Part shown: positions 477 through 35,900 of the stretch, in pieces
Position numbering within the stretch: the first letter of the stretch is position 1
Layout: each line of letters begins with the position of its first letter
DNA from: Klebsiella phage KP34
Reading direction: 5' to 3' (one strand)
Sequence record: NC_013649.2
DNA: 43,809 nt
Made by a program: the position numbers and the translations under genes
The notes under the pieces: generated by a model
Database searches by the model: none
Told to the model about the DNA's origin: nothing
What the model saw: the letters and a program-made list of their open reading frames with translations, nothing else

Positions 477-494
477 ATGTTACAGGAGTAGGAG
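477..494 (+). promoter_or_regulatory. Candidate phage-RNA-polymerase promoter P1 (ATGTTACAGGAGTAGGAG); left-end position analogous to T7 phiOL
   Basis: One of three identical copies of the 17-nt core ATGTTACAGGAGTAGGA (477..493, 22199..22215, 33723..33739), all on the + strand. The length and the trailing TAGGAG resemble T7/SP6-type promoters (T7: TAATACGACTCACTATAGGGAGA). Confidence 0.5.
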
Positions 495-660
495 GGTTTT
501 AGGGCACTATATACACTACTACTCACTATGCACTCACTAGTACCTACTAGTAATGCCCTGTATGACTGACCGTAGGGAAGGAAGCATTACCTACCCATTA
601 ACTAGCCTCATAGCTTAACCGCTCCCACAGCTTACGCTGTATGGTCGCTGGCTATGAGTC

Positions 661-747
661 TATGTAGCACTATGTAGTAGTGGCTAGTAGTGGCTAGAGC
701 TATCCCTAGTGTGGCTCTATGTTGGCTCTAAGTATGGCTCTAAGTAT
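661..747. repeat. Array of short periodic direct repeats in the non-coding left end
   Basis: TATGTAG occurs twice (661, 671), TGGCTAG twice (681, 691), TGGCTCTA three times (712, 723, 735), and tandem GGCTCTAAGTAT at 724-735 and 736-747. Period is about 10-12 bp, there is no coding potential, and the array sits just inside the DTR as the T7 left-end repeats do. Confidence 0.7.
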
Positions 748-785
748 TTGCCCTGCTTACCCTTTTTGCTCCCAGTGATAAAAAG

Positions 786-830
786 TTGAAAATAGTACTT
801 GCTTCTTTTGGTTCAATGCAGCTATAGTTC
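786..830 (+). promoter_or_regulatory. Candidate host sigma70 early promoter Pa (-35 TTGCTT 799-804, 18-nt spacer, -10 TATAGT 823-828) preceded by GATAAAAAG (777-785)
   Basis: Reasonable -35/-10 pair directly downstream of the terminal repeat region and upstream of the first genes. An A-rich GATAAAAAG motif precedes a TTGA hexamer. Confidence 0.4.
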
Positions 831-918
831 AATCACCGGGAGGCACTGAGGCGCTAACCGGGGTCGAGCCGGGAGGCTCCGCCGGATTAAAGCTAGATAG
901 TGTGAAGGGTTAGATACT

Positions 919-960
919 CGATAAAAAGAGTTGACACCGCGAAGAACATAAGCTAGATTG
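919..960 (+). promoter_or_regulatory. Candidate host sigma70 early promoter Pb (GATAAAAAGAG 919-929, -35 TTGACA 930-935, 17-nt spacer, -10 TAGATT 953-958)
   Basis: Perfect -35 consensus with optimal spacing and an acceptable -10. The same GATAAAAAG upstream motif as Pa. Position matches the T7 A1-A3 early promoter cluster. Confidence 0.55.
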
Positions 961-1276
961 AATCCAAGCAGTAAGTAGTAAGCTGGTTTGCGGGGAGGCC
1001 CAGTACCTTAAATGGTACGATGACGACCAAGCCTATACAGTCAGCCAAAAAGCAGGACCGCAACGGAGCCGTAGGGCTAGAGGGCGGGGCTAACAAGCCG
1101 AACACTACCGGGGCGCTGAGACACTGCCCCGTAAAAGAATAGTGTCGAGACCTGAACCACAGGTTCCACGGTAGTGCAGTGGGTAACAAGGTTAAGACTA
1201 AGCGTCATCCGTGCTGGGGCAGCGGTGCCACCTACGGGGCAAATGGCGCTTAACATTAACTTTGAGGGAGTACACA

Positions 1277-1492
1277 ATGAAATATCGTGAGAAGTTAGCG
1301 CAACAATTCGCTGGGCTGGAGAAGTTATCCGGTTCGGAGTTGAGAAAGCGCCGGGATGCACTGAACCGCGCAGGGTATATGCGGATGAAGCAGTCCGCTG
1401 CATTCAGTACGAATGTACGTGGTAAGACCAAAACAAGGGGCGGTAGCAAGGTCCCACAAGGTTGGTACACTGCCGGACAGTTCGGACACTAA
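1277..1492 (+). CDS. Hypothetical small basic early protein (72 aa)
   Basis: The 93-aa ORF in the track starts at 1211; an internal ATG at 1277 is preceded by GAGGGAG (1265-1271). Lys/Arg-rich product; first gene after the promoters. Confidence 0.45.
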   Translation: MKYREKLAQQFAGLEKLSGSELRKRRDALNRAGYMRMKQSAAFSTNVRGKTKTRGGSKVPQGWYTAGQFGH

Positions 1493-1499
1493 TTACAGC

Positions 1500-1524
1500 C
1501 TATAGCATCCTACGGGGTGCTATG
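1500..1524 (+). promoter_or_regulatory. Conserved intergenic RNA hairpin, copy a (10-bp stem, UACG loop); candidate RNase III site or RNA stabiliser
   Basis: CTATAGCATCC-tacg-GGGTGCTATG lies immediately after the stop of gene 1277..1492. A near-identical element follows gene 2339..2512, with a compensatory A-U to G-C change in the stem. Confidence 0.5.
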
Positions 1525-1563
1525 TGAAGTAATTACCTAAACAACCAACCAACGAGGTGCGTC

Positions 1564-2139
1564 ATGACTCATTCAACTGGTAAAGTATTCAAACTCACCG
1601 CCGCTGGCAGCATCCGCAAAGCGCTGGGCGACGTAGTGGAAGCAAAGCGTAACATCACTATCAGCGCGCTGTTTCACGGTCTGGTAAGCAGCAACGTTTC
1701 CTGGGCTACGGATATGCAGCGCAGCGACGCCGCTGACTTCGATATGGTGCTGCGTACGCTGTTGCTAATCAAGTTTAACAAGGAGTCCGGCAAGTACGAA
1801 TTCAATGCTAAGAAGTGCTATGCGTCTGCTGAGAAGCTGGGCATCGAACTGGATACTATGCGTCTGGACTATAAACAAGCTGACAAGCAGGGCCGCGAAG
1901 TGATTGTAGCCAGCTTCTATAGCTCCTGTATGGCCCTGTACGCTGCCGAAGCGGAGCAGGTGAAGAATGACGCACTGGATGCCGATGCAGTGCGCTTGCA
2001 AGCGCTGGGGCGCGTTAAAAACGCCATCAAGAAGGCTAAAGAGACTGGTGTAAGCGATGCTGACCTAGTGTCTATGCTGGTATCGCAGGGCGTGGACGTA
2101 CGCGCTGTACTGGACGCAACTTTGAAGGTGGCAGCATGA
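1564..2139 (+). CDS. Hypothetical early protein (191 aa)
   Basis: ORF with SD GAGGTG 5 nt upstream of ATG 1564. No recognisable motif. Confidence 0.7.
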   Translation: MTHSTGKVFKLTAAGSIRKALGDVVEAKRNITISALFHGLVSSNVSWATDMQRSDAADFDMVLRTLLLIKFNKESGKYEFNAKKCYASAEKLGIELDTMRLDYKQADKQGREVIVASFYSSCMALYAAEAEQVKNDALDADAVRLQALGRVKNAIKKAKETGVSDADLVSMLVSQGVDVRAVLDATLKVAA

Positions 2140-2338
2140 TTTATAAAGTCCCGGTTATCAAGTGGTGGGCATTGTGCCCAGCGGCCAACGATGCCGACGC
2201 CTTCGACAGTTCCACAGATACCCGCTATAGCCCTTGGTTTTACTTGGGTTTAGGGGACAACGTATAGCGTGATTTCTCATAGGGTATTCTAGCGAGTACC
2301 CTAGAGGGCAATCATGCCACAACAAAGGAGAGTAAACT

Positions 2339-2512
2339 ATGCCATACCGTAACCGCGCCCAACGTCGTGCTGATGCTGCTGAAATGCGTAGCAAACGTAA
2401 ACCCAGCGCCGCCCAGAAGTCACTGGCGCGTCCTAGCCGCCAGAATGCCATCACTGGGGGCTTGATTAAGCTGAGCGACTTCTATTCGCGTATCGGTATC
2501 AGCGTACTTTAG
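2339..2512 (+). CDS. Hypothetical small basic protein (57 aa); missed by the ORF track (<60 aa)
   Basis: ATG 2339 is preceded by a strong SD AAAGGAGAG (2324-2332, 6-nt spacing). Translates MPYRNRAQRRADAAEMRSKRKPSAAQKSLARPSRQNAITGGLIKLSDFYSRIGISVL. Conflicts with minus-strand ORF 2158..2454, which I regard as spurious. Confidence 0.55.
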   Translation: MPYRNRAQRRADAAEMRSKRKPSAAQKSLARPSRQNAITGGLIKLSDFYSRIGISVL

Positions 2513-2520
2513 TAGCAAGC

Positions 2521-2545
2521 CTATAGCGTCCTATGGGGCGCTATG
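2521..2545 (+). promoter_or_regulatory. Conserved intergenic RNA hairpin, copy b (10-bp stem, UAUG loop)
   Basis: CTATAGCGTCC-tatg-GGGCGCTATG is 9 nt after the stop at 2512. Shares flanks AGCCTATAGC and GCTATGTGAA with copy a. Confidence 0.5.
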
Positions 2546-2573
2546 TGAATGCAACTGGCGTATGAGGTTTCAT

Positions 2574-2789
2574 ATGAAAGCAATACTGGTTTATCCGGGC
2601 CATGAACTTTATGAGGCCTGCCGAAACATGGAGCAGGACTACGAGTTCACAGTGGTTATATTAACTGGGGACCATTTTACCGACACCGTGCTTGAGTATA
2701 TTGATACTCACACCGAAATGGCTGCCCGCACTGTGCTGGACGCCGTGAATCTTGGCATTATCAACGACTGGAGACAACTATATGGTTAA
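2574..2789 (+). CDS. Hypothetical early protein (71 aa)
   Basis: The track ORF starts at ATG 2562. GAGG (2564-2567) gives a proper SD for the in-frame ATG at 2574 instead. Confidence 0.5.
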   Translation: MKAILVYPGHELYEACRNMEQDYEFTVVILTGDHFTDTVLEYIDTHTEMAARTVLDAVNLGIINDWRQLYG

Positions 2790-3045
2790 TGTATTCAACA
2801 TCATTGTGACCAGCGCTATGCTGGTGCTGGGCAACGACGTAAACAACCCGGTGCCCTACTGCACAGTGCAGTTGCAGCAACCGGCGGAGCAGGAACCGCA
2901 GCCGCGCCCTGAGTATGACCTCTTTGAGGATCCCGAGGGTGGTTGCAAAGAGCTAGGTGCGCGTATTCTTGCGGCGGTGCAGGAGCAGTACCCGAACGCC
3001 GCTGTAACGCTCACTGTAGACGGTAAGAGCAACAACGATATTTGA
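2782..3045 (+). CDS. Hypothetical early protein (87 aa), mildly acidic
   Basis: The track ORF 2752..3045 overlaps the previous gene. The in-frame ATG at 2782 (MVNVFNII...) with GGAGAC upstream is more likely. Confidence 0.5.
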   Translation: MVNVFNIIVTSAMLVLGNDVNNPVPYCTVQLQQPAEQEPQPRPEYDLFEDPEGGCKELGARILAAVQEQYPNAAVTLTVDGKSNNDI

Positions 3046-3053
3046 GGTAGGGT

Positions 3054-3233
3054 ATGCACGGAAAGAATCCTGAAACGCTGCTTATGCGTGGGCAGCAACC
3101 AACAATCGAAGGGCTGGCGCGCGAGTACAACGCGAAGGCAGCACTGCGCCAGCACTACGAGCGGCAAGCGCAGCGCCTGGGTATGACTCTGCGCGGCTAC
3201 TGTCTGCGCTTTAACGTGCGGGGTGTGGTATGA
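3054..3233 (+). CDS. Hypothetical small protein (59 aa); missed by the ORF track
   Basis: SD GAGGTAGGG (3043-3051) precedes ATG 3054. The stop overlaps the next start in an ATGA junction at 3230-3233. Translates MHGKNPETLLMRGQQPTIEGLAREYNAKAALRQHYERQAQRLGMTLRGYCLRFNVRGVV. Confidence 0.6.
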   Translation: MHGKNPETLLMRGQQPTIEGLAREYNAKAALRQHYERQAQRLGMTLRGYCLRFNVRGVV

Positions 3234-3439
3234 AGTACGACGTGTATAAAAATAAGCGCAGTGGTATATACTACTGCGTTAACCTTATGGGTGGTATCAA
3301 TGAGTGGCACCTGTTACTACCAGATGAGCCGCCCTACACGCTGGAAAGAAGCACGTGGCGCGCCGGTGATGTAATCACCCGACCGGATGTATTCCAGCTC
3401 ATAGCCCGCAACGTGGTATTCAAGGACAGCGTATGCTGA
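3230..3439 (+). CDS. Hypothetical early protein (69 aa)
   Basis: ORF; its start overlaps the stop of the upstream gene (ATGA). Confidence 0.55.
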   Translation: MKYDVYKNKRSGIYYCVNLMGGINEWHLLLPDEPPYTLERSTWRAGDVITRPDVFQLIARNVVFKDSVC

Positions 3440-3777
3440 CAGTAGACGAAACAGCGCTGCTGTGCTGGCGTCTGCTGGAAACGCAGGGCAAGTGCGGCTG
3501 CACTTGGGAAACATTCAAAGAGGTTCCTAATGAACTCAAGAAAATTGTACCTGTTGAGCGGAGAAACATTAGAATCCGCAAGCAGGATTCAACGGTGGTG
3601 CTCACAACCTACCGAGAGTATACAGAATCTGCCGCGCGGCAGTTGCAAGAGCACATTCAGTTCGATGTGGTTGCAGCACTACTACGGCACGGATATCGTG
3701 GAGCCTATACAAGATTTAGGGCGGCTGTGCGCTCGTATTATAAGCAAAGACAGCTCGCTGCGTGGTATGCACGCTGA
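3433..3777 (+). CDS. Hypothetical early protein (114 aa)
   Basis: ORF with SD AAGGA 7 nt upstream. ATGCTGA start/stop overlap with the previous gene. Confidence 0.6.
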   Translation: MLTVDETALLCWRLLETQGKCGCTWETFKEVPNELKKIVPVERRNIRIRKQDSTVVLTTYREYTESAARQLQEHIQFDVVAALLRHGYRGAYTRFRAAVRSYYKQRQLAAWYAR

Positions 3778-3817
3778 ACTCTCAATGCACGATGAAATAC
3801 AATTAACCCAGGAGCAA

Positions 3818-5497
3818 ATGAAAATGCAAGAGACTAACACAGCACCTATCGAATGGAAAGTAGTATTACCGGAAGGTGCAAACGCACTGCCAATGAAAGA
3901 GTCAATGTATTCCAGTGGTGATTACTGGACCCCGTTCCAGGGCTTGCAAATGCAGGGCGCTGACCATCCCCACACTGAGGGCCCGCTGCAGGCGCTTATG
4001 GGTCTACGCACTGTCAGCATGCTAACTCCGGGCTTAGAGGTAACTATAGGCGAGATGCTGCACCCAGAGTATCACGCAGTAATGACGATTCGAGGCCCGT
4101 TGCAAAAGGTGGACCTGTATAACAGCGGAACTTTCTACGAACTCTTTGCCCCGGCGCGAATCACCATCGACAACAAGTTCTGGGAACGCCGCCGCGACTT
4201 CTATGAGGGCGATGATGTAGTGGTTGAGCGCGTGGTTGCGTGCGTGGAAGAGTTCACCGGTTACAAGGTGCACAAGCAGGCCGTGCAGTTATTCGAGCGC
4301 ATTATGCTTGCGCCAGAGCAAGCACGGCGCCGAGAGTATACTGGATACGATTACGGCAGTCACATCCGTGACATGCACGCCGCGGCGCTGCTCATGAAGT
4401 TGCACGGTTTTGTGGTATCTCGCTTCGCCGTACCCTTGGGCTTTGGTTTCCGCAACGGAGAGCCCATCGTGATGCTGGGGCAGCTGCGTATGCACAAGGA
4501 CTTCGCCGCGATTACTGAGTACCGCTGCGTAGAGATGCGCGTAGGTAAGTGGCTCGCTAACTACTACGGAAATGGTGTGGACTTCCGCGATGCTATCGAA
4601 GACCTCAAAGCTATGAACGTAGAGCCTACAACGTACCTGTGCAAGACCGAGCAGGAATGGTACGACGCCTACGAGAATGGCCCGGGTAGCTGCATGAGCG
4701 GGTACTCCTTTGAGCACAGCCCTGTGCGGACGTATGCTACCACCAGCCACGGGCTGCCAGATAATGGGCTGCGCCTGTTCATACAGTACACCGGGGAACT
4801 GTTCGGGGATGACTTTGAAGTGCAGGCACGGGCAATCGTTAACACAGAAACTAACGAGTATGTTCGTGCTTATGGCAACGCTGCGGATGCAATCCTGCGC
4901 GGACATGGGTACACCAGAAACACTGAGTGTCTCGAAGGGGTAATGCTGGCGCGTATACCACACCCGCAACACACCGGTGCGGTGCTGATGCCGTACCTCG
5001 ATAGCACCCAGTGCGGAGTATATGAACATGGGGAGGACGCATTTGTAATTCGTGACGCTTACGAGTACGAGGCGCAAGAAGCCGATGGATACATCTACGT
5101 CGGTACAGAATCTGCTCGGTGCTGCTGCTGTGAGGAGCGATACTCCGTAGATTACATGCAGGAAACCGCAGATGGTGATATGGTGTGCGATGGCTGTATT
5201 GAAGAGGAAGAGTTTGTACATGCAGTTGGACGTCGGGGTCTGTACAACCGATGGAACTGTACCTGGTCTGATTACCACGGTGCCTATGTATACGACAGTG
5301 ACCTCGCGCACTGTGCGGTAGAAGGTGTAGTGCACGACCAAGCAGAACTGGTGTATGCGCAGGGATTTGAGGTGCTTATTGAGCACGCAGAAGAACACCC
5401 AGTGCACGGGTTAATTCTCACTGAGCATGCAGCTGATTGCTTGGGAGAGAAGTACCTGGGCAACGATGACGAAGAAGAAGTAGAGGAGGCAGCTTAA
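3818..5497 (+). CDS. Large early protein of unknown function (559 aa) with a cysteine cluster (CCCCEERY...CDGC) and an acidic C-terminus
   Basis: Long ORF (track: 3530..5497). I prefer the in-frame ATG at 3818 (MKMQ...), preceded by AGGAGC (3810-3815), which avoids overlap with 3433..3777. No family recognised by eye. Cys-rich segment CCCCEERYSVDYMQETADGDMVCDGC; tail DDEEEVEEAA. Confidence 0.75.
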   Translation: MKMQETNTAPIEWKVVLPEGANALPMKESMYSSGDYWTPFQGLQMQGADHPHTEGPLQALMGLRTVSMLTPGLEVTIGEMLHPEYHAVMTIRGPLQKVDLYNSGTFYELFAPARITIDNKFWERRRDFYEGDDVVVERVVACVEEFTGYKVHKQAVQLFERIMLAPEQARRREYTGYDYGSHIRDMHAAALLMKLHGFVVSRFAVPLGFGFRNGEPIVMLGQLRMHKDFAAITEYRCVEMRVGKWLANYYGNGVDFRDAIEDLKAMNVEPTTYLCKTEQEWYDAYENGPGSCMSGYSFEHSPVRTYATTSHGLPDNGLRLFIQYTGELFGDDFEVQARAIVNTETNEYVRAYGNAADAILRGHGYTRNTECLEGVMLARIPHPQHTGAVLMPYLDSTQCGVYEHGEDAFVIRDAYEYEAQEADGYIYVGTESARCCCCEERYSVDYMQETADGDMVCDGCIEEEEFVHAVGRRGLYNRWNCTWSDYHGAYVYDSDLAHCAVEGVVHDQAELVYAQGFEVLIEHAEEHPVHGLILTEHAADCLGEKYLGNDDEEEVEEAA

Positions 5498-6543
5498 TGT
5501 TCTTGAATCCGCACGGGATTGATATGCAGCTGCTATTGCAGATACTGCAAACGCACCGGCCTAGCTGGGCAAGCACTAAGTGGTTTGAGCCGCTGCTTAT
5601 GCAAGCGCTGGGTAGTGGTATGCACTACGTAAAGGACAAGCACGGGAACTACTTCGTGCTGGTGGGGGACTCAGAGCAAAGCGACGTAGCGTTTACGTCT
5701 CATCTCGATACGGTGGCCCGCCCAACCAGCGCTGCGCCGGACGTCGGCTGCACTAACAAGGGCGTGCTGTTCGTAAAGAATCCGCAACAAGCTGACTGCT
5801 TGGGGGCGGACTGCGGTGCCGGTATCTACCTGATGCTAGAGATGCTGCGGCGAGGTGTGCATGGACGCTACTGCTTCTTCGTGGATGAGGAGGTTGGTTG
5901 CGAGGGCAGCGCTGCATCAGTCAAGGATGACACTGGGTTTTGGACTGGGGTCAAGGCGATGATTAGCTTTGACCGACGCGGCGACGGAATCATAACGCAT
6001 CAACGGTATATGCGCTGCTGCTCTGACACCTTTGCCAAGACCCTAGCAGAGCGCCTGGGACGCACGGAGCAGCACTTGCAGAAGGGGGTATATACTGACT
6101 CAGCTGAGTTCGTTGGTATCATTCCTGAGTGCACCAACGTCGGTGTAGGGTACATGCACGAGCACACCCCGGATGAGGTACTGGACCTGAACATCCTGGG
6201 GCAAGTGCTTGAGCGGGTACTGCAAGACGGTACGTTCTCGCACCTTCCGATTGAGCGGGACCCGAAGGTAGTAGAGCCAGACCAATGGCTCTCTGCATCG
6301 ACACTCAGTTTACGGCAGCCGTGGGACATGCCCCCGGCCGAGGACCCGCAGTTACTGGCTGCGTTCCGGGAAGTGTCGCAGCTTTCTAAACAACAATTGA
6401 TTAGCTGGGTGCAGGAGAATCCAGAGAAGGCGGCGGAGTACATAATGGTGTTCTCCGATTACGGCTTTAAAGAAGAGCTGATTGAACTAGGCACCCGAGT
6501 CGTAGAAGACTGGGGCGGATACGATAATATTGTGGAGGGTTGA
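5497..6543 (+). CDS. M20-family (ArgE/DapE/CPG2-like) metallo-amidohydrolase/peptidase homologue (348 aa)
   Basis: VAFTSHLDTV matches M20 signature 1 ([LIV]-x-[LIVMF]-x-[GSA]-H-x-D-[TV]-[STAV]). ...GADCGAGIYLM...YCFFVDEEVG matches the signature-2 tail ([DNGM]-E-E-x-[GSTNE]). A C-terminal His lies in YMHEHTPDE. SD GAGGAGG 8 nt upstream; start overlaps the stop of the 559-aa gene (TAATG). Confidence 0.7.
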   Translation: MFLNPHGIDMQLLLQILQTHRPSWASTKWFEPLLMQALGSGMHYVKDKHGNYFVLVGDSEQSDVAFTSHLDTVARPTSAAPDVGCTNKGVLFVKNPQQADCLGADCGAGIYLMLEMLRRGVHGRYCFFVDEEVGCEGSAASVKDDTGFWTGVKAMISFDRRGDGIITHQRYMRCCSDTFAKTLAERLGRTEQHLQKGVYTDSAEFVGIIPECTNVGVGYMHEHTPDEVLDLNILGQVLERVLQDGTFSHLPIERDPKVVEPDQWLSASTLSLRQPWDMPPAEDPQLLAAFREVSQLSKQQLISWVQENPEKAAEYIMVFSDYGFKEELIELGTRVVEDWGGYDNIVEG

Positions 6544-6545
6544 TT

Positions 6546-9464: not shown

Positions 9465-9470
9465 CTTCCC

Positions 9471-9506: not shown

Positions 9507-9514
9507 GGGGCTTC

Positions 9515-12952: not shown

Positions 12953-13020
12953 TCTGGCTTGATTCTGTGATTCCACGAGAATTAATGTGATACGAGTAGG
13001 AACAACATAAGAGAGTTACG

Positions 13021-13299
13021 ATGAGTAAAACATTCCTTATTGATGTAGCCTTTAGCACTAAGTTAGTAGTCTCAAAGGAGGAGCTAGGTGGTATGCGCGG
13101 ATGGATTAAATCGCGCAAACTACCAGAGCACTTTCAAAATTACCTGGACTCGCTAGATGATGACGCGGCACTGCAGGCGTTTATAAAATACGCCACCAGG
13201 GAGTGGTTCAAGGGGGAGCTGGAGCGCCAGAGGAAACAGGATGGGGGTGCCACTACGTACTCCCCGGTAAAAGTAACGGTACGGGAGAAACAACACTAA
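13021..13299 (+). CDS. Hypothetical protein (92 aa)
   Basis: ORF after the AT-rich island with a weak SD (AAGAGAG). Confidence 0.55.
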   Translation: MSKTFLIDVAFSTKLVVSKEELGGMRGWIKSRKLPEHFQNYLDSLDDDAALQAFIKYATREWFKGELERQRKQDGGATTYSPVKVTVREKQH

Positions 13300-14336
13300 T
13301 GGCGCGCGTAAGTCTAATCAAACTATTCACCAAAGAGCAGCACCAGGCAATCCTGGGCCAGTACTTGGATAACTCTACTGCTGCCAAAGCGTACAACGTA
13401 CTACTGGCTTACGGGGAAATACCACAGTACAAGGAGAGTGCTGAATACTACGGCACCCTTGGTACCGCGGAATGCGTGGTGTCCCGCCAGCTTGTGCGCT
13501 ACTGGCGCAGCATCTTCATGGATAACAAGGGCAGCAAGTCAAAGGCTAACAATGCCCTGATGCAAGCCCGAAAACTAATTCAACCTTCCCCAACGGATGA
13601 TATTGGGGATACCTTTGTACCTGAAACATGTCGGCGTGTGCTTGTTATTGGGGACTTGCACGAGCCGTACACACATCCGGACGCGTATGACTTTTTACGC
13701 ACTGTGCGGGATGAGTACTGCCCAGACATTGTGGTGCAGATAGGCGACGAGACGGATGGGCACGCTATTAGCTTTCACGATAGCAGTCCGGAGTTGGACA
13801 GCGCTGGGGTGGAATTAGAGAAGGCCAAGCTCGGCCTGGAGAAACTGCACGACCTGTTTCCTAACATGCTCCTGTGTGATTCTAATCACGGCTCCCTTGT
13901 CTACCGCCGGGCCAAGGCTCACGGACTCCCTGTACAGTTCATTAAGAAGTACCGGGACATCCTGTTCCCGGAGCACGGGGCACCGGGGTGGAGTTGGGGT
14001 GATGCTTGGGATTTGAATACTCCGCTGGGTACTGTGCGATTCCAACATCAAGTATCTGGGGACCTGCTGCTCAACGCAGCCCATGAACGTAAGTCCATGG
14101 TGATTGGACACTTCCATGGGAAGTTAGATATACAGTATGCCGCTAGCAGCACTGCCCTGTACTTTGGTGCGCACTGCGGTTGTTTAATCGACAACAAGAG
14201 TCTGGCATTTGCTTACGGCAAGTTGTCAAGAAGCAAGCCGATTCTAGGGTGTATGGTGATTACAGATGGATGCCCGCAAATCATCCCCATGCTATTGGAC
14301 GACACCGGCCGGTGGTGTTCTAGAGTACAACCCTGA
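13299..14336 (+). CDS. Calcineurin-like metallophosphoesterase (possibly an Mre11/SbcD-type nuclease or phosphatase), 345 aa
   Basis: Motifs GDLHEP (GDxH), GDETDGH (GDxxDxxH), SNHGS (GNHE-like) and IGHFHG. I chose the ATG at 13299 (TAATG overlap with the upstream stop) rather than the track start at 13203. Confidence 0.8.
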   Translation: MARVSLIKLFTKEQHQAILGQYLDNSTAAKAYNVLLAYGEIPQYKESAEYYGTLGTAECVVSRQLVRYWRSIFMDNKGSKSKANNALMQARKLIQPSPTDDIGDTFVPETCRRVLVIGDLHEPYTHPDAYDFLRTVRDEYCPDIVVQIGDETDGHAISFHDSSPELDSAGVELEKAKLGLEKLHDLFPNMLLCDSNHGSLVYRRAKAHGLPVQFIKKYRDILFPEHGAPGWSWGDAWDLNTPLGTVRFQHQVSGDLLLNAAHERKSMVIGHFHGKLDIQYAASSTALYFGAHCGCLIDNKSLAFAYGKLSRSKPILGCMVITDGCPQIIPMLLDDTGRWCSRVQP

Positions 14337-19722: not shown

Positions 19723-22191
19723 ATGATTAGCGCCCTAAGTACGGTAGTAGTACCAGAGGAAGCACTGGTGAAACGCCAGCTGGAGCTTGAAGAGACCTAT
19801 AAGATTCGCGGAATCGAGCGGGCACGTAAGCTGATTACGGACGCATTGCAGAACGGCGGGATTATGAACCTGCCTATGACGCAGCGTATGCTCACTTCGG
19901 CATATGAAGTGGCTGCTGCCGCGATCGATGAGATGCGAAATGTCAAAGCCCCTGGCATTGGTGGGAAGTATCGCCGGTTCCTGCGCTTAATCCCCTTGGA
20001 TGTCCTGACCACCCTGAGCCTGTGCACAATGTTTGAGGCGTTCAGCGTCGCCCCCGGCGAGTCCGCCAGTCGCCGCCAGACTGCGCAGGCGGTAATGTCC
20101 GCACTGGGCCGGAACGTGCAGTCGGAACTGCTGTCTTTGCAGCTGCGTAACGTTGCCCCGGCGTACATGGACCGGGTGTATGAGTATCTCACAGAGCGCC
20201 GTACAAAGTCACCTACGCACATCCTGCGTACGCTCCGTGCCAGTGCCGAGAACGTGCACTACGGGCACGAGCCTTGGACCAATGCCCAGAACATCTCCGT
20301 AGGGCGTCTGCTGTGTGCCGCAGTATTCGAGACGGGTCTGTTCCAGTGGAAGACGGGCAGCGGGAACCTGAGCATGCTCTACCCCGCAGACGACGTTATG
20401 GAAGCATTTCAGCAGCTAGTGGAATCTGCTGACACTGTGACGATGAAGCCTCCTATGCTGGTGCCGCCGGTGCAGCACACTACGATGTGGGACGGCGGGT
20501 ACCTCACCCCAATCGATAACCGCGGTACGTACCATAACTCGCACATCGACCGCACCAGACTGCGTGAAGTAGCGGAAGCATTTAAGTCTGCGGACGGCAT
20601 CAAGAAGGCGCTTAATAAGGCACAGGAAACTCCGTACCGTATTAATAAGCGCATACTGGAACTGGTGCAAGAAGCACGGGCCCTAGGTATCGGAGTGGGT
20701 ATGCCCCGCTCAGTGCCGGAGCCTAAACCGGAGTGGTACTTGGATGGCGTACCAAAAGAGAACTACACAGAGGAAGAACTGGACCGCTTCGGTGAGTGGA
20801 AGACGCGTATGTCTCTGTGGTACAGTGCTGACCGTAAGCGTGTGTCGCAACTGCGCAGCCTTCTGACTACGTTAGAAATGGCAGAGGAATTCAAAGATGA
20901 GAAAGCTCTTTACTTCCCGACTTGTGTGGACTGGCGCTACCGCCTGTACTTCAAGTCCTCACTGCATCCCCAAGGTTCTGATTTGCAGAAAGCCCTTCTT
21001 GAGTTTGGCAGAGGAAAACCTCTGGGTGATCGCGGCTTATTCTGGCTCAAGGTGCATGTCGCCACATGCTTTGGTTATGACAAGACCTTATTCGAAGACC
21101 GCGCAGCTTGGGTTGATGCGAACTTTGCAGAGATTGAGCAGCTTACAGTTTCACCGTTTGATTGCCCTGCTTTCACCTCCGCGGACAGCCCTTGGTGCTT
21201 ATTGGCCGCCGCTATCGACCTGGTTAATGCTGTGCGTTCTGGATGCCCAGAAGAGCATATTAGCCGAATCCCAGTTGCTATGGACGCTACAAACTCTGGT
21301 GGACAGCACCTCTCAGCGCTCCTGAGAGACCCTGTAGGCGGTCGTCTGACGAACCTGTACTGGGAAGGTAACGACAAGAAAGCGGACCTGTACATGGATG
21401 TGAAGCGCCGTACGGACGAGAAGGTGATACTGGACCTGGACAAGGAGGACTTCATTATCCAGAGCACGTACTGGAGAGAGAACGAAATCACCCGCAGCAT
21501 GACCAAGCGCCCCAGTATGACCTACTTCTACAGCGCCACGGTGCGTAGCTGCAGCGACTACATCTTTGAAGGCGCTTGCGCTGAGGGATACGAGGGTACC
21601 GATACTAACAGTCTGTGGAACCTGTCGTGTTACCTGGCACCGCGTATGCGTGCCGCTATCGAGGAGGCAAACCCCGCTGCTGCGGCAGTTATGGGGTACT
21701 TGCAGAACCTAGCTAGACGTGTACCGGCAAGCCAGCACCTGCAGTGGTATACGCCGCTGGGTGGGCTCGTAATGAACCGCTACACGCAGCGTGAAGAAGT
21801 GCGCGTACGTATTGACTGCATGAACCTATCGGCGGTACTGGTACACAACCGGGACTTCAAGACCTGCAACAAGCGTAAGGCAGCCTCCGGGATTGCCCCG
21901 AACTTTGTGCATAGTCTGGACAGTACGCACTTGATGATGGTGCTCTGCGCTGCGGAGGGTCTGGATATTGTGCCGATTCACGACTCACTGGCTACTCACG
22001 CAGCCGACGTTGATGATATGCACCGACACATCCGCGAACAGTTTGTGCGCCTCTACGAGGAGAATGACCTGCTTGGCGACATTACTCGCGCGGCGGCAGC
22101 AGCCGGGGCAGACTTGACGGACCTGGACATGCCTGAGGTGGGTACTTTGGACATCCGTCAAGTGCTAGAATCCCCGTTCTTCTTCTGCTAA
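19723..22191 (+). CDS. Single-subunit DNA-dependent RNA polymerase (T7 RNAP family), 822 aa
   Basis: Size and collinear similarity to T7 gene 1. Motif C region IVPIHDSLATHAADVDDM and C-terminal ...FFFC-like end. SD AAGGAG upstream. Its position after the replication genes is phiKMV-like. Confidence 0.95.
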   Translation: MISALSTVVVPEEALVKRQLELEETYKIRGIERARKLITDALQNGGIMNLPMTQRMLTSAYEVAAAAIDEMRNVKAPGIGGKYRRFLRLIPLDVLTTLSLCTMFEAFSVAPGESASRRQTAQAVMSALGRNVQSELLSLQLRNVAPAYMDRVYEYLTERRTKSPTHILRTLRASAENVHYGHEPWTNAQNISVGRLLCAAVFETGLFQWKTGSGNLSMLYPADDVMEAFQQLVESADTVTMKPPMLVPPVQHTTMWDGGYLTPIDNRGTYHNSHIDRTRLREVAEAFKSADGIKKALNKAQETPYRINKRILELVQEARALGIGVGMPRSVPEPKPEWYLDGVPKENYTEEELDRFGEWKTRMSLWYSADRKRVSQLRSLLTTLEMAEEFKDEKALYFPTCVDWRYRLYFKSSLHPQGSDLQKALLEFGRGKPLGDRGLFWLKVHVATCFGYDKTLFEDRAAWVDANFAEIEQLTVSPFDCPAFTSADSPWCLLAAAIDLVNAVRSGCPEEHISRIPVAMDATNSGGQHLSALLRDPVGGRLTNLYWEGNDKKADLYMDVKRRTDEKVILDLDKEDFIIQSTYWRENEITRSMTKRPSMTYFYSATVRSCSDYIFEGACAEGYEGTDTNSLWNLSCYLAPRMRAAIEEANPAAAAVMGYLQNLARRVPASQHLQWYTPLGGLVMNRYTQREEVRVRIDCMNLSAVLVHNRDFKTCNKRKAASGIAPNFVHSLDSTHLMMVLCAAEGLDIVPIHDSLATHAADVDDMHRHIREQFVRLYEENDLLGDITRAAAAAGADLTDLDMPEVGTLDIRQVLESPFFFC

Positions 22192-22198
22192 AAATTTA

Positions 22199-22215
22199 AT
22201 GTTACAGGAGTAGGA
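22199..22215 (+). promoter_or_regulatory. Candidate phage-RNAP promoter P2 (TAATGTTACAGGAGTAGGA), immediately upstream of the ATG at 22216
   Basis: Identical core to P1 and P3. Lies in the 24-nt gap after the RNAP gene. The AGGAG inside the motif doubles as the SD for the next gene. Confidence 0.55.
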
Positions 22216-22656
22216 ATGAAGTTAAAACACACTAGTAAAACTTCCGACTACACTCTCAGGGTTCTGTATAAGTCTGACGACATTACAGACGCAGTGAAGC
22301 AACTGCATGAACTGGGCCACGGCATTAGTCGGGGCCTAGCTCCAGAGCAGCACTACTGGAGAGTACTGGGCAGCATACTGGATAAACAGTATATACTAGG
22401 AGTCTATGACTCCCAAGGCGACTTAGTCGGTGCTGTCAGCTACTACCCAGAAGCTGTAGAGGACTGTCATTACGTAGAGCCTGTGCTGTATACAGACTTC
22501 TTCGTATTGAAGCCAGGTAACAGTAAGGCGGTACTTGTGATTATGCAGGGCCTTCGCGCAATAGCTAAGAGTATGCGGGCTGGGCGTATCGCCATTAGCC
22601 GAGGTGCATCGGATAACACATACAATACAACTTATCATTTAGTGAGGTCAGAATGA
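22216..22656 (+). CDS. Hypothetical protein (146 aa), first gene after the RNAP; weakly GNAT-like, unverified
   Basis: ORF directly downstream of promoter motif P2. No firm motif. Confidence 0.65.
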   Translation: MKLKHTSKTSDYTLRVLYKSDDITDAVKQLHELGHGISRGLAPEQHYWRVLGSILDKQYILGVYDSQGDLVGAVSYYPEAVEDCHYVEPVLYTDFFVLKPGNSKAVLVIMQGLRAIAKSMRAGRIAISRGASDNTYNTTYHLVRSE

Positions 22657-26617: not shown

Positions 26618-26622
26618 TACGC

Positions 26623-26660
26623 GCCCCTGGTGCCTTCGGGTGCCAGGGGCTTTTTTTTTT
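26623..26660 (+). terminator. Strong rho-independent terminator (12-bp stem, UUCG loop, T10 tract)
   Basis: GCCCCTGGTGCC-ttcg-GGTGCCAGGGGC followed by tttttttttt, directly after the capsid operon. This is the position of T7 Tphi. Confidence 0.85.
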
Positions 26661-26705
26661 GTCCCTGTCTTAAGGGTCCAAGGGGTCTTTAATAGAGGAA
26701 CAAAT

Positions 26706-27266: not shown

Positions 27267-27275
27267 GGAGAGGTT

Positions 27276-29636: not shown

Positions 29637-29637
29637 T

Positions 29638-30225
29638 ATGTGGTGGATGGTTGCGGCCATGGCCGCTAAGACCGTTCTGGGGCATGGTGCTCAGGTCGAG
29701 GTGTCCAAGGCAAGAAACAAGGCTGTGATTCAACAGACAGCCAAACAACTAAATGACATCGCGCTACAGCGCGCACAGTCCAGGGACCGGACTGAGGTGT
29801 CCCTGTTTAACATTCAGCAGCAGAAGCTGCAGGCCCAGAGTCAGGTAGGTCTGCAGGCAGCAGCTTCCGGCACTATGGGGGCCTCTGTTAAAGACGCCGT
29901 AGCTACGGTTAACACTGTAGCCGGGCGGCAAGAGGCCAGCGTACGTGACCAGCAGGCAACTCAGGAAGAGGGTTTCCGTCTAATGACGGATAAGGCCGTG
30001 GACAGCGGCTTGGCTAACATGGATATGGAGGACCCGTACGATAACATGTTTAACTCACTGTTGAGTGTCGGGGCATCCGCTGTTGGGCAGTACGCCGGTA
30101 ACGCTGCGTCATCTTCTGACTCTGGCAGCTCTTCGCCTGGGAGCGGAGCGTCAGCTACGCAGAGCATGGCATCCTCCTATGACTTATGGGGGAGTAAGGG
30201 CAATAGCCCAGTTCACACCTGGTAA
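29638..30225 (+). CDS. Internal virion protein A (gp13/gp14-like), 195 aa
   Basis: Position between tail tube B and the large internal virion proteins. Gln/Ala/Ser-rich. Confidence 0.6.
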   Translation: MWWMVAAMAAKTVLGHGAQVEVSKARNKAVIQQTAKQLNDIALQRAQSRDRTEVSLFNIQQQKLQAQSQVGLQAAASGTMGASVKDAVATVNTVAGRQEASVRDQQATQEEGFRLMTDKAVDSGLANMDMEDPYDNMFNSLLSVGASAVGQYAGNAASSSDSGSSSPGSGASATQSMASSYDLWGSKGNSPVHTW

Positions 30226-30242
30226 ATTAGGAGGAATACTAA

Positions 30243-32927
30243 ATGCCTGTGATTCAACCCAGTAGACAGGGGCTAAATATCGGTGGCGTGCAACTGCAAT
30301 CCAACGATGTTAGCTTGCCGTCAACGGTAGGTGAAGTATCTGTTGATACCTCCAAAGCAAAACGCCTAGCCGCCCTGTCTGGATTCGTGCAGGACTTCGG
30401 CGTAGGTTTTGACGAGGCAGTAAAAGAAAACGCAGCAGCCGCCACCGTGCGCGGCGCTATGGATGCTCAGGGCGCAGTAGATGCAATGGCTTCTAAGGAC
30501 GAGGCTGTACAGAAGCAAAACATCTTCGTGCGCGAAGCCTACCAGGACGGCTACGTATCCGCCGCCGCGTACGACACTCTAGCCAAGTGGCGCACAGACA
30601 GCATCGCCCGGGCTAAGAAAGCTGCCGAGGCAGGACTTACTGACGAGGAATTCCAGCAGCAGGAGCAAGAGCACGTACAGTCAATGTCAGACAAGCTCGG
30701 GATGTATCTCCCGGATATGTCCAAGCAGTCTGCTACGAGCATACTGCAGCAGCTCCGTGCTACCAGTATGGCTAACTATACAGCCTTCCAGAAAGGACGC
30801 GCTGCGTTCGCCCTGGCCCAGGCTGACCGTGCCCTCGACCGTGGACTGAGTGCGTCCAGCGATGAGTTCTATCAGCGTCTGCAGGCGGGGCAGGGTGCCG
30901 CTGCGCAGATGTCTATCAAGACCGGATTAGACAGTATCCTGGCTGCTGAGCACTTGGACAAGAACAAGAAGCTGGACCGGGCCAAGCAGTATCTGGTCAG
31001 CGTAGCGCAGCAGACGCAGGACCCGCTGGTAATCGACCAGCTGCAAGAGCTCGCCACCAAGGAACTTGGTGTAAACTCCGTAGACGTTAACGCAGCGCTA
31101 TATCAGGAGTTCAAGCGCGCCGGTGCTCAGATTGAGACGCAAGCCCGTTTTGAAATCTCCGATGCAATCCAGTCTCTTGAGGGGCAGACCCCTGAGCAGC
31201 AAGAACAGACTATGCAGCGTATTCGTAGTCGTGTCATTGAGCTGTCGGCATCTGATGTACTTAGCGCCGGGACCAGCATGGAGTTCTGGAACAAAGCCCA
31301 GACCATTCGAGAGAAGGCAGCAGACGCCCAAGCATTGCGCACAGCAATTACTGGGAATATGCCAAGCTCTACTCTGGCGGGGATGTACAAGGGCGACCTG
31401 GGCAAGGCGCGCAATGAGTTGCTCAAGAGCTTTCCGGATACCCCGGAAGGGAACCTGCAGCTGCTGGCATACGGGAGCAACAGCAAGGATGCGTGGGCAG
31501 TCAACGAAGCGCACAAGCGTATGTCTTCGGATATGGCACGTACGCTTACTACGCTGGACCAGCTCGGCGAGGATGGCGAGGTTTCCCGCGAGAACGTCAA
31601 TAGCATCAACTTGTGGGCACAGGCTTATAGCACCAGTACGGACTTAGGGAAGATGGCGCTGCTGTCTGAGGTCCCATCTGAGTGGCGCGGCGTGGTTCAG
31701 TCGGCTATTGCTCAGAACCCAAGTAACGCCAGCAACACTATCTTGGACGACCTGCGCCGCCAGGCGCGCAACAAGGCTAGCGGCCGCTATACTGATATCC
31801 CAGAAAATCCGACGGATAAGATGGTAGACCCAAGCGGCACTGCTAACTGGTTTAGCTTCTTCGGAGATGCGGATGCCCAGCGACAAGAGGCACGGGCGGC
31901 GATGGTGGAGGAGTTCCGCTACCTTAAAACCAATAACCCAGAGTCCTTCGCTGGTAAGGATGCTGACGATATTAATAAGATGCTCAAAGGCAACATCCAA
32001 TCCCGTAAATTGGAGCTGGAGGTTGCTGGTGCACCTAGGCATGTGTACCTGCCACCAGGCACTTCCTTGCAGTCCCTTATGGGAGACTACAAAGGTGATT
32101 CGGAGCAGTTTACAGCATCGCTGCAGCAGCATATCCAGAATCAAGTTCAGTACCTGTCGGACCCCAGCAACATAGAGCGAGTGGTGATACAGGCAGCCAC
32201 GGCCGGTAACGCGGGTCAGAACATGTCCGTAATCGTCATTGACAAGAAGGGCAAATTCCAGGATATGTCTGTGAATCTTCGTGACGTTCAGGCTACTGCT
32301 CAGGCTGCGTATGATTCAGCGCTGGCTGGTGAGATGAAGATTGGCAGCGAACAAGTAGGCGTACGTCCCGCTACCTTCTATGACCATGACAACGGACGTG
32401 CTGTCAGCGTGCAAGTCAACGGCCGTAACTCGGTGGGGCTGGAACCCTCGCTGTTTAGTGACATCCTCGCTACCACTATGAAGTTCGAAGGGTTCCGAGA
32501 AGGCAAGGGCAAGGGTAGCGTAGGCTTCGGTCTGCACGTTAACTCAGGCATGCCTGTCCCGCAGAAAGTGACCATTGATGACGGCATCAGTATCCTCAAG
32601 TCCTCCCTGGAGAAGCAGTACGTCCCGAACGTGCAGAAGCAACTCAAGGGGCAGGGTTTGAATGCCTCCGACGAAGCGTTAAAGGTCATGGTGGACCTGA
32701 ACTATCACGGTGGTAACGGTAGCTCTGGCCCCGTAGCAGAGGCGATGGCACAGGTACGCAAGGCTGCTAAGGCCCCGGTGGGGGCGTATCAGTATCCTGT
32801 ATCTGAGGCCCAAGGCAGGGCTTGGCAAGCACTGCGGAATACCCCGGCGTACAAGCAGGCCCAACCTGAGCGTAAGAAGTACCTGGAACAAAACCTACGT
32901 GATTGGCTCTTCGAAGCAACGCACTAA
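30243..32927 (+). CDS. Internal virion (ejection) protein B with a C-terminal lysozyme-like peptidoglycan hydrolase domain (894 aa)
   Basis: Size and position. C-terminal segment KFEGFREGKGKGSVGFGLH... resembles the E-G-x-R start of lysozyme-like domains. phiKMV-type phages are known to carry a lysozyme domain at the C-terminus of the about 900-aa internal virion protein (from memory). Confidence 0.8.
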   Translation: MPVIQPSRQGLNIGGVQLQSNDVSLPSTVGEVSVDTSKAKRLAALSGFVQDFGVGFDEAVKENAAAATVRGAMDAQGAVDAMASKDEAVQKQNIFVREAYQDGYVSAAAYDTLAKWRTDSIARAKKAAEAGLTDEEFQQQEQEHVQSMSDKLGMYLPDMSKQSATSILQQLRATSMANYTAFQKGRAAFALAQADRALDRGLSASSDEFYQRLQAGQGAAAQMSIKTGLDSILAAEHLDKNKKLDRAKQYLVSVAQQTQDPLVIDQLQELATKELGVNSVDVNAALYQEFKRAGAQIETQARFEISDAIQSLEGQTPEQQEQTMQRIRSRVIELSASDVLSAGTSMEFWNKAQTIREKAADAQALRTAITGNMPSSTLAGMYKGDLGKARNELLKSFPDTPEGNLQLLAYGSNSKDAWAVNEAHKRMSSDMARTLTTLDQLGEDGEVSRENVNSINLWAQAYSTSTDLGKMALLSEVPSEWRGVVQSAIAQNPSNASNTILDDLRRQARNKASGRYTDIPENPTDKMVDPSGTANWFSFFGDADAQRQEARAAMVEEFRYLKTNNPESFAGKDADDINKMLKGNIQSRKLELEVAGAPRHVYLPPGTSLQSLMGDYKGDSEQFTASLQQHIQNQVQYLSDPSNIERVVIQAATAGNAGQNMSVIVIDKKGKFQDMSVNLRDVQATAQAAYDSALAGEMKIGSEQVGVRPATFYDHDNGRAVSVQVNGRNSVGLEPSLFSDILATTMKFEGFREGKGKGSVGFGLHVNSGMPVPQKVTIDDGISILKSSLEKQYVPNVQKQLKGQGLNASDEALKVMVDLNYHGGNGSSGPVAEAMAQVRKAAKAPVGAYQYPVSEAQGRAWQALRNTPAYKQAQPERKKYLEQNLRDWLFEATH

Positions 32928-32930
32928 CCA

Positions 32931-32948
32931 GAGGCCCTTCGGGGCCTC
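32931..32948 (+). terminator. Stable hairpin GAGGCCC-ttcg-GGGCCTC (UUCG tetraloop) after the 894-aa gene; partial terminator or RNA stabiliser
   Basis: Perfect 7-bp stem 3 nt after the stop codon. The downstream sequence is only moderately T-rich (CCCTTATCAAAATTCTTTT). Confidence 0.4.
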
Positions 32949-32977
32949 CCCTTATCAAAATTCTTTTAGGAGATATT

Positions 32978-35900
32978 ATGGCTCAGTTTCTGAACCAAGA
33001 ACCGAATCCACAGGAAAAGGATTCTGCTAAGGGCGCAACACTTAAACCTGCGCCTGAGCGCATAGATTGGAACGATGCCGGGGACAACGGTCTGAACGCA
33101 CTGGAGCGTGCCTCATTACTGGCACAGGCCAAGACACCAGCTACTACAACCTCAGAGAGCTTTGCGTCGGGTATGGGCAACAGCATCATCGCCGCAGCTA
33201 TCCGCAAGGCCTCTGCTCCGGCATTTGACCGAGACCCGAACTTTAATGCTAAGCAGACCCTGAGTAGCGATACTCGGGCTAAGCTGTATGCTCCGAATCA
33301 GGAAGAGATTGAGTACCTGCACGACTCCGTGTCGGTAGAAGATTACAACTACCGCATGCAGCAGATGCTTGAGCAGCGTGACCGTGACCGCTTAATGGCT
33401 GACAACACAGTAGCCGGGTTCGCTGGTATGTTGGTAGGCGACTCCCCGTTCATCCTGGCCCCGATGTCTGCCGCCGGTATTGCTGGCCGCGCGGGCTTAG
33501 CTGCACGTACCGCTATCCGCGCTGCTGACGTAGGCTCAGCATTCTATGCACAGGACCAACTAGGTCAGTCCGCTGCGGTAACTGCACTGATAGCAGGGGT
33601 AGCTGGGTTGGACCAGCTCTGGGATATGTCTAGGGCTGCTAAAGCTGCCGCCAAGGCTCGTACTGGGCGTGAGCCTATGTTCGACCCGGAAGCGCCTACA
33701 ACTCGTACAGCGAGGGACGCTAATGTTACAGGAGTAGGAGAGGGAGAGGAAATTCTCACTAAGACACTGGATGAAAGCATCCAAGTATCGAGAAACAATA
33801 CCGCCTCCGTGAACATGAAAGCACAGCACGTAGTTCAGTTCTTGAAGAATTCTGAACACTTAACTGCAGGTCAGAAGGCTATTCTGGACACGCTGGGTGA
33901 TGCTGTAAACGACATTGATTTTAAACTAGTAGCAGGCTCCGCAAACCGCAGCCGCTACACTTATGCACAACAAGATTTAGCTAAGCGGGGAGAGATATCC
34001 CTGCGCGCACCTAAGCAAGCTAACGGCAGCACCTGGACTACAGTCGGTGATGCGCTGCGCGCTATGGATGCAGACACAAGCAGGGTAGCTGTGCACGAAC
34101 TGATTCATGCCGCCACTGCGCGCGCCATTGACAGTAACCCAGAGATTGCTAAGCGCCTGGAGGAAGTACGTGCTGTTATTGCAGCAGACTCCACCCTGAC
34201 ACCGCGTATGCGGTATTACGCAAGTAATGTGCATGAGATGCTGGCAGGTTTAGGCGACAGCCCTGAGTGGGTTGAGCACCTGGTACGTACGCAGTCTCCC
34301 ACCGGTAAGAGCATGCTCCGCCAACTGGGTGAGTACATCATGAACGCTCTGGGCATCAAGGCCAAAGGCTCTGCCTTGGAGGATGTCCTGGATGCATACG
34401 AGGACGCCGTTAAGTGGACCGCTAAGGATTATGCAGACCAAGCCCAGAGCTTCCGTAGCGAAGCCTTCCAGGACCTGGTGGATAGCACCACCCTCAACGA
34501 GGCTAAGCGCGCCCAGGCCATGCTGGATGGTGCCAAGAAGAAGCTATCCACTATGTTTGCCCTGTACGATAACATCGCTCAAGGCAACGAAGACTTGGCT
34601 AAACTGCTAGTGTCGGACGCGTCCGCCGTAGGTGGCCGACGCCCGTCAGTGGTAGACTACAAGCGTAACCTCACTTTGGAGATGGATGCTCGCGCCAGCG
34701 TAGTGGAGGACGCTATCCTGGGCGCGTTGAAGGATAAGGGTATAGGCGTGCTCTCACGCTTCTTCCACCGTAGTAATTTCCGCGCTGAGCGGGCTGCACT
34801 GGAAGACCGCCTGAGTAAGTACCTGGATGCTGCCTACAGCGCTGACGTAAACGGTCGCGCCGTTCCGGTGCCGGATGCAGAGATTGCTCCGCTGGTTGAT
34901 GCCTACCGTCGCTCTGGCTGGGCTAGCAAGTGGCACGAGCATATGCTCAATGCCGGTCTAGTAGATGATGGTGCGTTGGTTAAATCCGACTACTACTTCC
35001 CGCGTCAGTACAGCTACGACAAGATGCGTCAAGGTATCGCACAGGGTAACACTCTGGACGACTACCGCGCACTGTTCCGGTTCGCCCTGCGGGACGTGTA
35101 CCCTAGCATGGAGTCAGAGGTGGTGCAGCGTGTTGCCAAGGAGATGGTTGACGGTATCTACAACGGCCGTGCCGGACAGTCTGGCCCTATGTGGAAGCAG
35201 CTGATTAACGGTATGGGCAACGATGAGGTCGTTATGGCTATGCGTAGCGCTGGTGTAGATGAGTCTGCAATCCAGAGCTTTCTGGCTGGTAATGTACGCG
35301 AATCCGGCAGCACATCCCCTGCGCGGAACCTGCGTCAGCGTACTCGGTTCAACATGGACAAAGAGTATCTGGTGAATGGTAAGAGCATGCGCATGCAGGA
35401 CCTGATGGATACTGACGTAGCCAAGGTTATGCACGGGTATACTAACCGTATGTCTGGGCGTGTAGGTATGGCCTATGCAGGCGTACAGGACCTGGGACAG
35501 CTCTCTAAGATGATTGATGAGTCTAAGCACGCACTGGCGGATTCCGCTAAGTGGGAGAAGACCGTCAACGACACCATCGACTTTATCCTGGGTGGGGCAC
35601 CTGCTGACTCGGGTCAGCTTCCGGGCTTGCTGCGCGCAGCTGGGAACATGGCGAACGCCACGATGCTCAAGAACTCCGGGCTGTATCAGCTGACTGATAC
35701 TGCTTTGGCTATGAAGGAGTTCGGTATGGCTAGAGTTCTGCGTAGTATGCGTGACCAGCCTTGGTTCAAGGAAGGTGTCGTAGCTATCAAGACTCCTGAT
35801 ATGGCTGCCCGTCTAGACACCGTGCTGCGGGGTAATATACAGAAGGAGATGCGCTTCCGCTGGCTGAATACGTACGCTGACGATAACCTGGACCTGACCC

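Follow-up and report, generated by a model that had tools for sequence, protein, structure and literature searches.

The strong promoter repeated in Klebsiella phage KP34: conservation, covariation with the phage RNA polymerase and occurrence in prophages

A 17-nucleotide (nt) sequence, ATGTTACAGGAGTAGGA, recurs at three places in the genome of Klebsiella phage KP34 (NC_013649.2; the window analysed here is the whole stretch of 43,809 nt), and the question is which machinery reads it. KP34 is a Klebsiella podophage of the genus Drulisvirus (Autographiviridae, Slopekvirinae), and a first-pass annotation had taken the repeat for a candidate promoter of the phage RNA polymerase (RNAP). Our analysis leaves little doubt that a single-subunit RNAP of the T7 family, encoded by KP34 at 19723–22191, uses the three sites as its strong, late-type promoters and initiates at the first G of the GGA that follows. 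Because the same element was published in 2019 (Lu et al. 2019, Front Microbiol 10:2487, PMC6834552), the observation and its interpretation are correct and not new; what is added here is the comparative conservation of the element and a link between promoter base −7 and RNAP residues 703–706.

The three strong promoters of KP34

As the annotation had stated, exact copies of the 17-mer lie at 477–493, 22199–22215 and 33723–33739, all on the + strand, and none was found on the − strand. When up to three mismatches were allowed, the genome gave four matches, compared with a mean of 0.13 in 100 dinucleotide-preserving shuffles, none of which reached four, and the claim that the recurrence is not due to chance is thus borne out. 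The flanks of the three exact copies are unrelated to one another and cannot be aligned, which argues for independent insertions of a short signal rather than segmental duplications. Two further upstream bases are common to two of the copies (TAATGTTACAGGAGTAGGA), where site 1 instead reads TGATG. The contexts had also been described correctly. At the non-coding left end, site 1 precedes the best host-type promoter match (TTGACA-17-TAGATT, 931–959) and lies ∼260 nt inward from the left one of the 216-base-pair (bp) direct terminal repeats (1–216 and 43594–43809) of this genome, whose G+C content is 54.07%. The RNAP gene ends at 22191 and the next ATG is at 22216; site 2 is within the 24 nt that separate them, and site 3 is in frame within an open reading frame (ORF) of 1257 amino acids (32903–36676) that relatives annotate as the internal core protein.

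The strong KP34 promoter of Lu et al., T(A/G)ATGTTACAGGAGTA, was placed at 475–490, 22197–22212 and 33721–33736, with TAATGTTACAGGAGTA at the latter two positions and TGATGTTACAGGAGTA at the first; the RNAP gene was given as 19723–22191, and a weak promoter, ACTTTGGACATCCGTCAAGT, with weak and heterogeneous initiation near nt 22164, was reported at 22144–22163 (PMC6834552). All five published features were found at exactly the published coordinates in the sequence examined here, so that in sequence, coordinates, RNAP gene and weak promoter the two descriptions are identical and the element itself shows no difference. In that work a polymerase chain reaction fragment spanning the RNAP gene and the following gap was transcribed by purified KP34 RNAP, and rapid amplification of 5′ cDNA ends (5′-RACE) from the in vitro transcripts placed most starts at nt 22213 (PMC6834552). 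Moreover, the 16-mers TAATGTTACAGGAGTA and TGATGTTACAGGAGTA each drove run-off transcription by the purified RNAP with similar efficiency, whereas the 14-nt core common to both was much weaker alone (PMC6834552). The reading of the motif as a phage RNAP promoter is hence supported by the same sequence, at the same coordinates, with activity in vitro.

A start at 22213 means that the 17-mer covers −14 to +3, and that +1 is the first G of the terminal GGA. The 17-mer is therefore a promoter element, as proposed, but it is not the functional unit, which extends two nt further upstream (T at −16, A or G at −15) and ends at −1. Similarly, 5′ ends had been expected near the internal GGAG, and the mapped start is instead at the first G of the terminal GGA. 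In these terms the left-end promoter (475–493, + strand) is of the S2 type, in which TGATGTTACAGGAGTA covers −16 to −1 and is followed by GGA, with a predicted +1 at 491; it is assigned by exact match to the published element. The promoter after the RNAP gene (22197–22215, + strand) is of the S1 type, TAATGTTACAGGAGTA, with its +1 G placed at 22213 by 5′-RACE and the next ATG at 22216. The third (33721–33739, + strand), inside the internal core protein gene, is also S1, is again an exact match and has a predicted +1 at 33737. The weak promoter W matches exactly at its published position (22144–22163, + strand), within the 3′ end of the RNAP gene. A crisp consensus for such a phage, which the first-pass annotation had called notable, was already reported in 2019 (PMC6834552), and KP34-like promoters were catalogued in a 2025 survey that predicted 467 of them across 135 genomes (PMC11880802).

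Conservation and covariation with the RNA polymerase

About 250 phage records match the KP34 genome at 80–94% identity, without an identical one among them. To follow the sites among relatives we used three locus sets gathered through neighbouring proteins, ∼60 relatives in all, because a scan of IMG/VR anchored on the motif favours conserved copies and includes chance hits. Site 2 was present and abutted the ATG in 61 of 61 loci from relatives found through the downstream protein, and it stays fused to the ATG also in 13 loci that carry an extra 350–490 nt after the RNAP gene. Site 3 was present in 42 of 43 loci; its block GCTAATGTTAC[A/C]GGAGTAGGAG is invariant except for a synonymous ACA/ACC change, while neighbouring third-codon positions are variable. 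Site 1 was found by a substitution-only search in 31 of 39 loci. A search of related genomes for the 17-mer, which had been suggested as a check, thus shows the motif kept at orthologous places. Natural variation of the promoter is limited to positions −15 (A/G), −13 (T/A), −10 (T/A) and −7 (A/C), and rarely −6.

The RNAP gene (19723–22191, + strand) is an ORF of 822 amino acids for a single-subunit, T7-type enzyme; its product aligns to residues 30–882 of T7 RNAP (E = 2.5e-66), and the homologue in relatives is annotated as RNA polymerase. Promoter base −7, which in KP34 is at 484, 22206 and 33730, was identical at every strong site in all 52 contigs with at least two strong sites. In the alignment of ∼55 relatives, residues 703–706 (S-A-V-L in KP34, codons at 21829–21840, + strand) were SAVL wherever −7 is A and T-I-(M/L/V)-R wherever it is C; one contig has a one-residue register shift. 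Genomes with A and with C at −7 numbered 19 and 16 for site 1, 26 and 28 for site 2 and 13 and 21 for site 3, and the match was complete at each site, although strong sites are up to 21 kb away from the RNAP gene. The next-best columns of the RNAP alignment (211/212) have a mutual information with −7 of only 0.65 bits.

In the alignment to T7 RNAP, S703 of KP34 is paired with Q758, N701 with R756 and R696 with N748, and residues 703–706 correspond to T7 758–761. The T7 counterparts N748, R756 and Q758 are residues of the specificity loop which, in the published T7 RNAP–promoter structure, read positions −11 to −7. An arginine that accompanies a C:G pair at −7 fits arginine–guanine recognition. 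From these alignments, residues 703–706 are a candidate specificity determinant for promoter base −7, and the covariation gives strong circumstantial support to the assignment, suggestive rather than proof.

Three other explanations of the repeats were weighed against the promoter reading. That the copies are chance matches or remnants of a duplication, which agrees with their small number and nothing more, is hardly credible given that no shuffle came near the observed count, that the flanks are unrelated and that dozens of genomes keep the copies at orthologous positions. It is scarcely more probable that the repeats bind another protein, of replication, packaging or regulation of the host RNAP, and that promoter activity is incidental. 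The location of site 1 close to the left terminal repeat would suit such a protein. The corresponding left-end region of T7 is also tied to replication and packaging. However, the motif covaries specifically with the specificity loop of the RNAP, prophage cassettes (see below) set it beside promoters of two other phage RNAP lineages, and transcription in vitro requires only the RNAP and the 16-mer (PMC6834552). A role in translation initiation, with AGGAG as the ribosome-binding signal fused to the ATG at 22216 and no promoter at all, is just as improbable. At site 2 it looks attractive, with AGGAG 4 nt before the ATG and this adjacency kept in 61 of 61 relatives, but no ORF starts in the 50 nt that follow site 1 at the non-coding left end, and no start codon follows site 3, which is in frame within a long ORF. 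With no start codon downstream of these two sites, a role in ribosome binding alone fails; in addition, the bare 16-mer is sufficient for initiation by purified RNAP (PMC6834552). With a start at 22213, AGGAG (22207–22211) is usable as a Shine-Dalgarno sequence only on read-through transcripts, for which the sequence at site 2 may serve both roles.

Several points nevertheless weigh against the assignment of all three sites as promoters of the phage RNAP. The start was mapped solely at the 22197 site and on in vitro transcripts, and the other two sites were assayed as synthetic 16-mers, outside their native context (PMC6834552). Our literature search found no in vivo mapping of 5′ ends for KP34 or any Drulisvirus. 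The covariation is not statistical proof, because it may reflect one or few evolutionary events, and the role proposed for the left-end site is drawn only by analogy with phiOL of T7.

Proposed transcription map and neighbouring signals

In the proposed mechanism, the specificity loop of the RNAP, including residues 703–706, would read the −7 region, the upstream T(A/G)AT would be required for full binding, and melting and initiation would take place at AGTA, the counterpart of TATA in T7. Directly past the RNAP gene, the promoter at 22197 would open the operon for structural proteins (portal, scaffold, capsid), and most of the transcription started there would probably stop at a terminator at 26623–26660. 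The promoter at 33721 would re-supply the tail-fibre, terminase, spanin, holin, endolysin and tailspike genes, which are named here from relatives. The promoter at 475, upstream of the host-type early promoters, would serve in late re-transcription of the left end or in concatemer processing. The map in the first-pass annotation, with one promoter at the left end, one for the structural module and one to boost packaging and lysis, agrees with this gene order. Just 5′ of site 1, an inverted repeat, CTTTC-ATTC-GAAAG (450–463), is invariant in 31 of 31 relatives examined.

The terminator (26623–26660, + strand) is a strong intrinsic one and follows the capsid gene block; it has a 12-bp GC-rich stem, a UUCG loop and a T10 tail, with a fold energy of −26.5 kcal/mol (z = −4.6), and relatives annotate a terminator at the equivalent place. 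The first gene downstream of S1 is an ORF of 146 amino acids (22216–22656, + strand), whose ATG is 3 nt past the mapped start. The sequence at 22213–22218 reads GGAATG, so transcripts from S1 are nearly leaderless for this gene, and the arrangement of start and ATG at 22207–22218 is kept in 61 of 61 relatives.

Like class III promoters of T7, T3, SP6 and K11, the KP34 promoter is short (∼17–23 bp), present in several copies on the coding strand and starts with G, but its sequence is unrelated to theirs beyond the purine-rich start. The likeness to T7 extends to reading by a homologous RNAP, a copy just after the RNAP gene and a left-end copy upstream of the host promoters (phiOL). In contrast, KP34 has only three strong copies, compared with ∼17 in T7 and 13 in KP32, and its RNAP gene is at the end of the early/middle region, whereas that of T7-type phages is at its start. 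KP34 shares its genome architecture with LUZ19 and other phiKMV-type phages, whose phage-specific promoter is GgtTATGTCACacACAnnGG (ONT-cappable-seq, Oxford Nanopore cappable sequencing, of LUZ19; Putzeys et al. 2024, PMC10914365). Its copies likewise follow the RNAP gene and recur in the structural region, a likeness noted for KP34 in that paper (PMC10914365), and their number, four, is similarly low. The consensus differs, however, and the LUZ19 sites were mapped in vivo while those of KP34 were mapped only in vitro.

The fourth match in the window, with three mismatches (12985–13001, ATGTGATACGAGTAGGA), belongs to a divergent motif, TAATGTGATACGAGTAGGA, at 12983–13001 on the + strand, with mismatches at −10, −8 and −6. 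Its place is a 160-nt gap that follows the DNA polymerase module; the ATG at 13021 is 20 nt 3′ of it, and an AT-rich stretch precedes it. In 53 of 61 relatives ATTAATGTGATACGAGTAGGAACAAC shows essentially no variation, in contrast to the 8 nt just 5′ of it, which vary freely, and such strong conservation argues that the motif is functional in some way. The pattern for a strong promoter applied to it was T(A/G)ATGTTAC(A/C)GGAGTA together with a −7 base that follows the RNAP type. In both RNAP types (25 SAVL and 25 TIxR genomes) its −7 stays A, with no covariation, and it was not classed as a strong promoter because of the three mismatches and because −7 does not follow the RNAP type. A host promoter was also considered: a sigma-70 scan around 12983–13001 gave nothing on the + strand there, and a hand reading, TTGATT-N18-TAATGT, is weak. 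The motif could be a phage promoter that is weak or read in a different way, a piece of a host promoter or a signal of another kind; a literature search by sequence found it in none of the papers covered. The stretch that follows it, 13021–14336, holds two overlapping ORFs in KP34 (13021–13299 and 13203–14336), while at the equivalent place relatives have a single gene for ∼344–347 amino acids that begins shortly past the motif and is annotated as hypothetical in SU552A and as metallo-phosphoesterase in KpV74 and KP-Rio. KP34 may carry a frameshift or an insertion here.

Several relatives still carry the annotation of a different ‘promoter’, AGCCTATAGC...ATGTGAA, predicted with MEME (Eriksson et al. 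2015). This candidate was rejected, as it gave no transcript in vitro (PMC6834552) and folds as an RNA hairpin. Its copies at 1497–1528 and 2518–2549 each form a 10-bp hairpin with a 4-nt loop (z = −4.2 and −3.6), and one stem pair differs between them by a compensatory change from A-U to G-C. These repeats are more likely hairpins for RNA processing or stability between early genes.

A promoter array in Klebsiella prophages

The motif scan of IMG/VR also matched ∼11 contigs outside Drulisvirus that are lambdoid Klebsiella prophages. In these the motif is between the spanin gene and the metallopeptidase and terminase genes, antisense to the late genes, and is part of a cassette in which up to three tandem exact promoters, all of the same orientation, face a strong Shine-Dalgarno sequence and a hydrophobic ORF of 36–38 amino acids. 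The promoters are of a KP32/T7 type (TAATTAGGTAGCACTATAGGGAG), a Molineuxvirinae type (TAATAGTGGCGAGTATAGA) and the KP34 type (TTTAATGTTAC(C/A)GGAGTAGGA), and belong to unrelated virulent Klebsiella Autographiviridae. The cassette was found in contig L003 (1560–1925), in L012, L024, L026, L041, L049, L098, L113, L114 and L117, and further in L119, L265, L379, L380 and ∼20 more loci. In L003, on the + strand, a T7/T3-like promoter, AATTAAGACTCACTATA followed by GG (1614–1630), precedes the middle element ATTTAATAGTGGCGAGTATAGA (1657–1678) and the KP34-type element, TAATGTTACCGGAGTA followed by GGA (1699–1714); after 1714 come a 70-nt leader with the Shine-Dalgarno sequence AAGGAGG and an ORF for a hydrophobic peptide of 38 amino acids (1785–1901), which ends against the spanin stop codon.

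The same 16-mer also occurs within a repeated coding motif (...GVV...DVTGVGTAR...AA) in L007 (three copies), L039, L054, L110 and ∼15 other IMG/VR contigs. In these unrelated environmental phage contigs it looks like a coding coincidence unrelated to KP34.

To survey the cassette independently of its promoters we anchored on the 3′ end of the spanin gene, which gave 100 unique loci. A small hydrophobic ORF was present at 49 of them; in 41 of these at least one phage-RNAP promoter core was found within 300 nt upstream, and all three types were found in 23. Aligned cassettes show conserved promoter islands separated by variable spacers, and peptides of at least five families replace one another in them. 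The first element is variable in its specificity region, and one of its variants is identical over 20–23 nt to a promoter of KP32 isolate 194 (Przondovirus), whose coding strand has 13 copies of it. The middle element, predicted as the third promoter, has matches at ∼10 places per genome in ∼45-kb Klebsiella podophages, and in phage ZK1 (Molineuxvirinae) sites of the TAATAGTGGCGAGTATAGAA type occur 12 times on the coding strand and not once on the other. The KP34-type element was seen in both natural −7 variants. A further variant with C at −6, TAATGTTACACGAGTAGGA, gave 17 hits in IMG/VR, of which 15 were prophage cassettes and one was a single left-end site of a Drulisvirus; loci with this variant include L274, L283, L289, L332, L346, L354, L363, L366 and L371. 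A Drulisvirus lineage that uses the ACACGAG variant TTACACGAGTA throughout had been predicted and was not found among the 17 hits.

On the sense strand no sigma-70-like promoter was found before the cassette ORF, and its mRNA is unusually unstructured (z = +2.9). No antisense antitoxin was identified for the cassette. Searches of four of the peptide families with Pfam, PADLOC and NCBIfam gave no match. The peptides are encoded on hundreds to at least 1000 Klebsiella contigs, where all database names are hypothetical or uncharacterised; in Escherichia coli they are rare (5 of 5426 genomes), and RefSeq leaves the region unannotated there. No match to the cassette was found in the plasmid collection, and two cassette scans of GTDB representative genomes gave no hits or chance hits only.

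As natural and independent evidence, the cassette indicates that the KP34 motif, of ∼20 bp, is a promoter unit complete in itself. What it does for the prophage can be proposed only tentatively, with somewhat less than even confidence: prophages would copy the KP34 promoter as bait, so that the RNAP of an invader switches on a membrane-active peptide which aborts or excludes the infection, an arrangement previously undescribed. Without an infecting Autographiviridae phage to bring in its RNAP, the putative peptide gene would stay silent. Such a tripwire is the most economical reading of the cassette. Suicide cassettes triggered by a phage promoter have been engineered in Lactococcus. Those cassettes share with the proposed tripwire a lethal gene wired to a promoter that only the infecting phage activates. 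A natural parallel is hokW-sokW of Sp5, with type I toxin-like small membrane peptides in lambdoid prophages (PMC8621323); as there, the cassette has a gene for a small hydrophobic peptide in a lambdoid prophage near the lysis region. Unlike either system, the putative triggers here are natural and exact, with up to three different phage-RNAP promoters in tandem. No description of promoter-triggered prophage toxins came up in literature searches, whether by concept or by exact sequence, though their coverage was incomplete and they are weak evidence of novelty.

For the KP34-like phages, the match between base −7 and residues 703–706 gives a testable handle for engineering orthogonal pairs of KP34-type RNAP and promoter. 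If the cassette is a defence, it would represent a new sensing principle, in which the transcription machinery of the invader is sensed through promoter mimicry, and it would bear on phage therapy against Klebsiella, for which KP34-like and KP32-like phages are common candidates.

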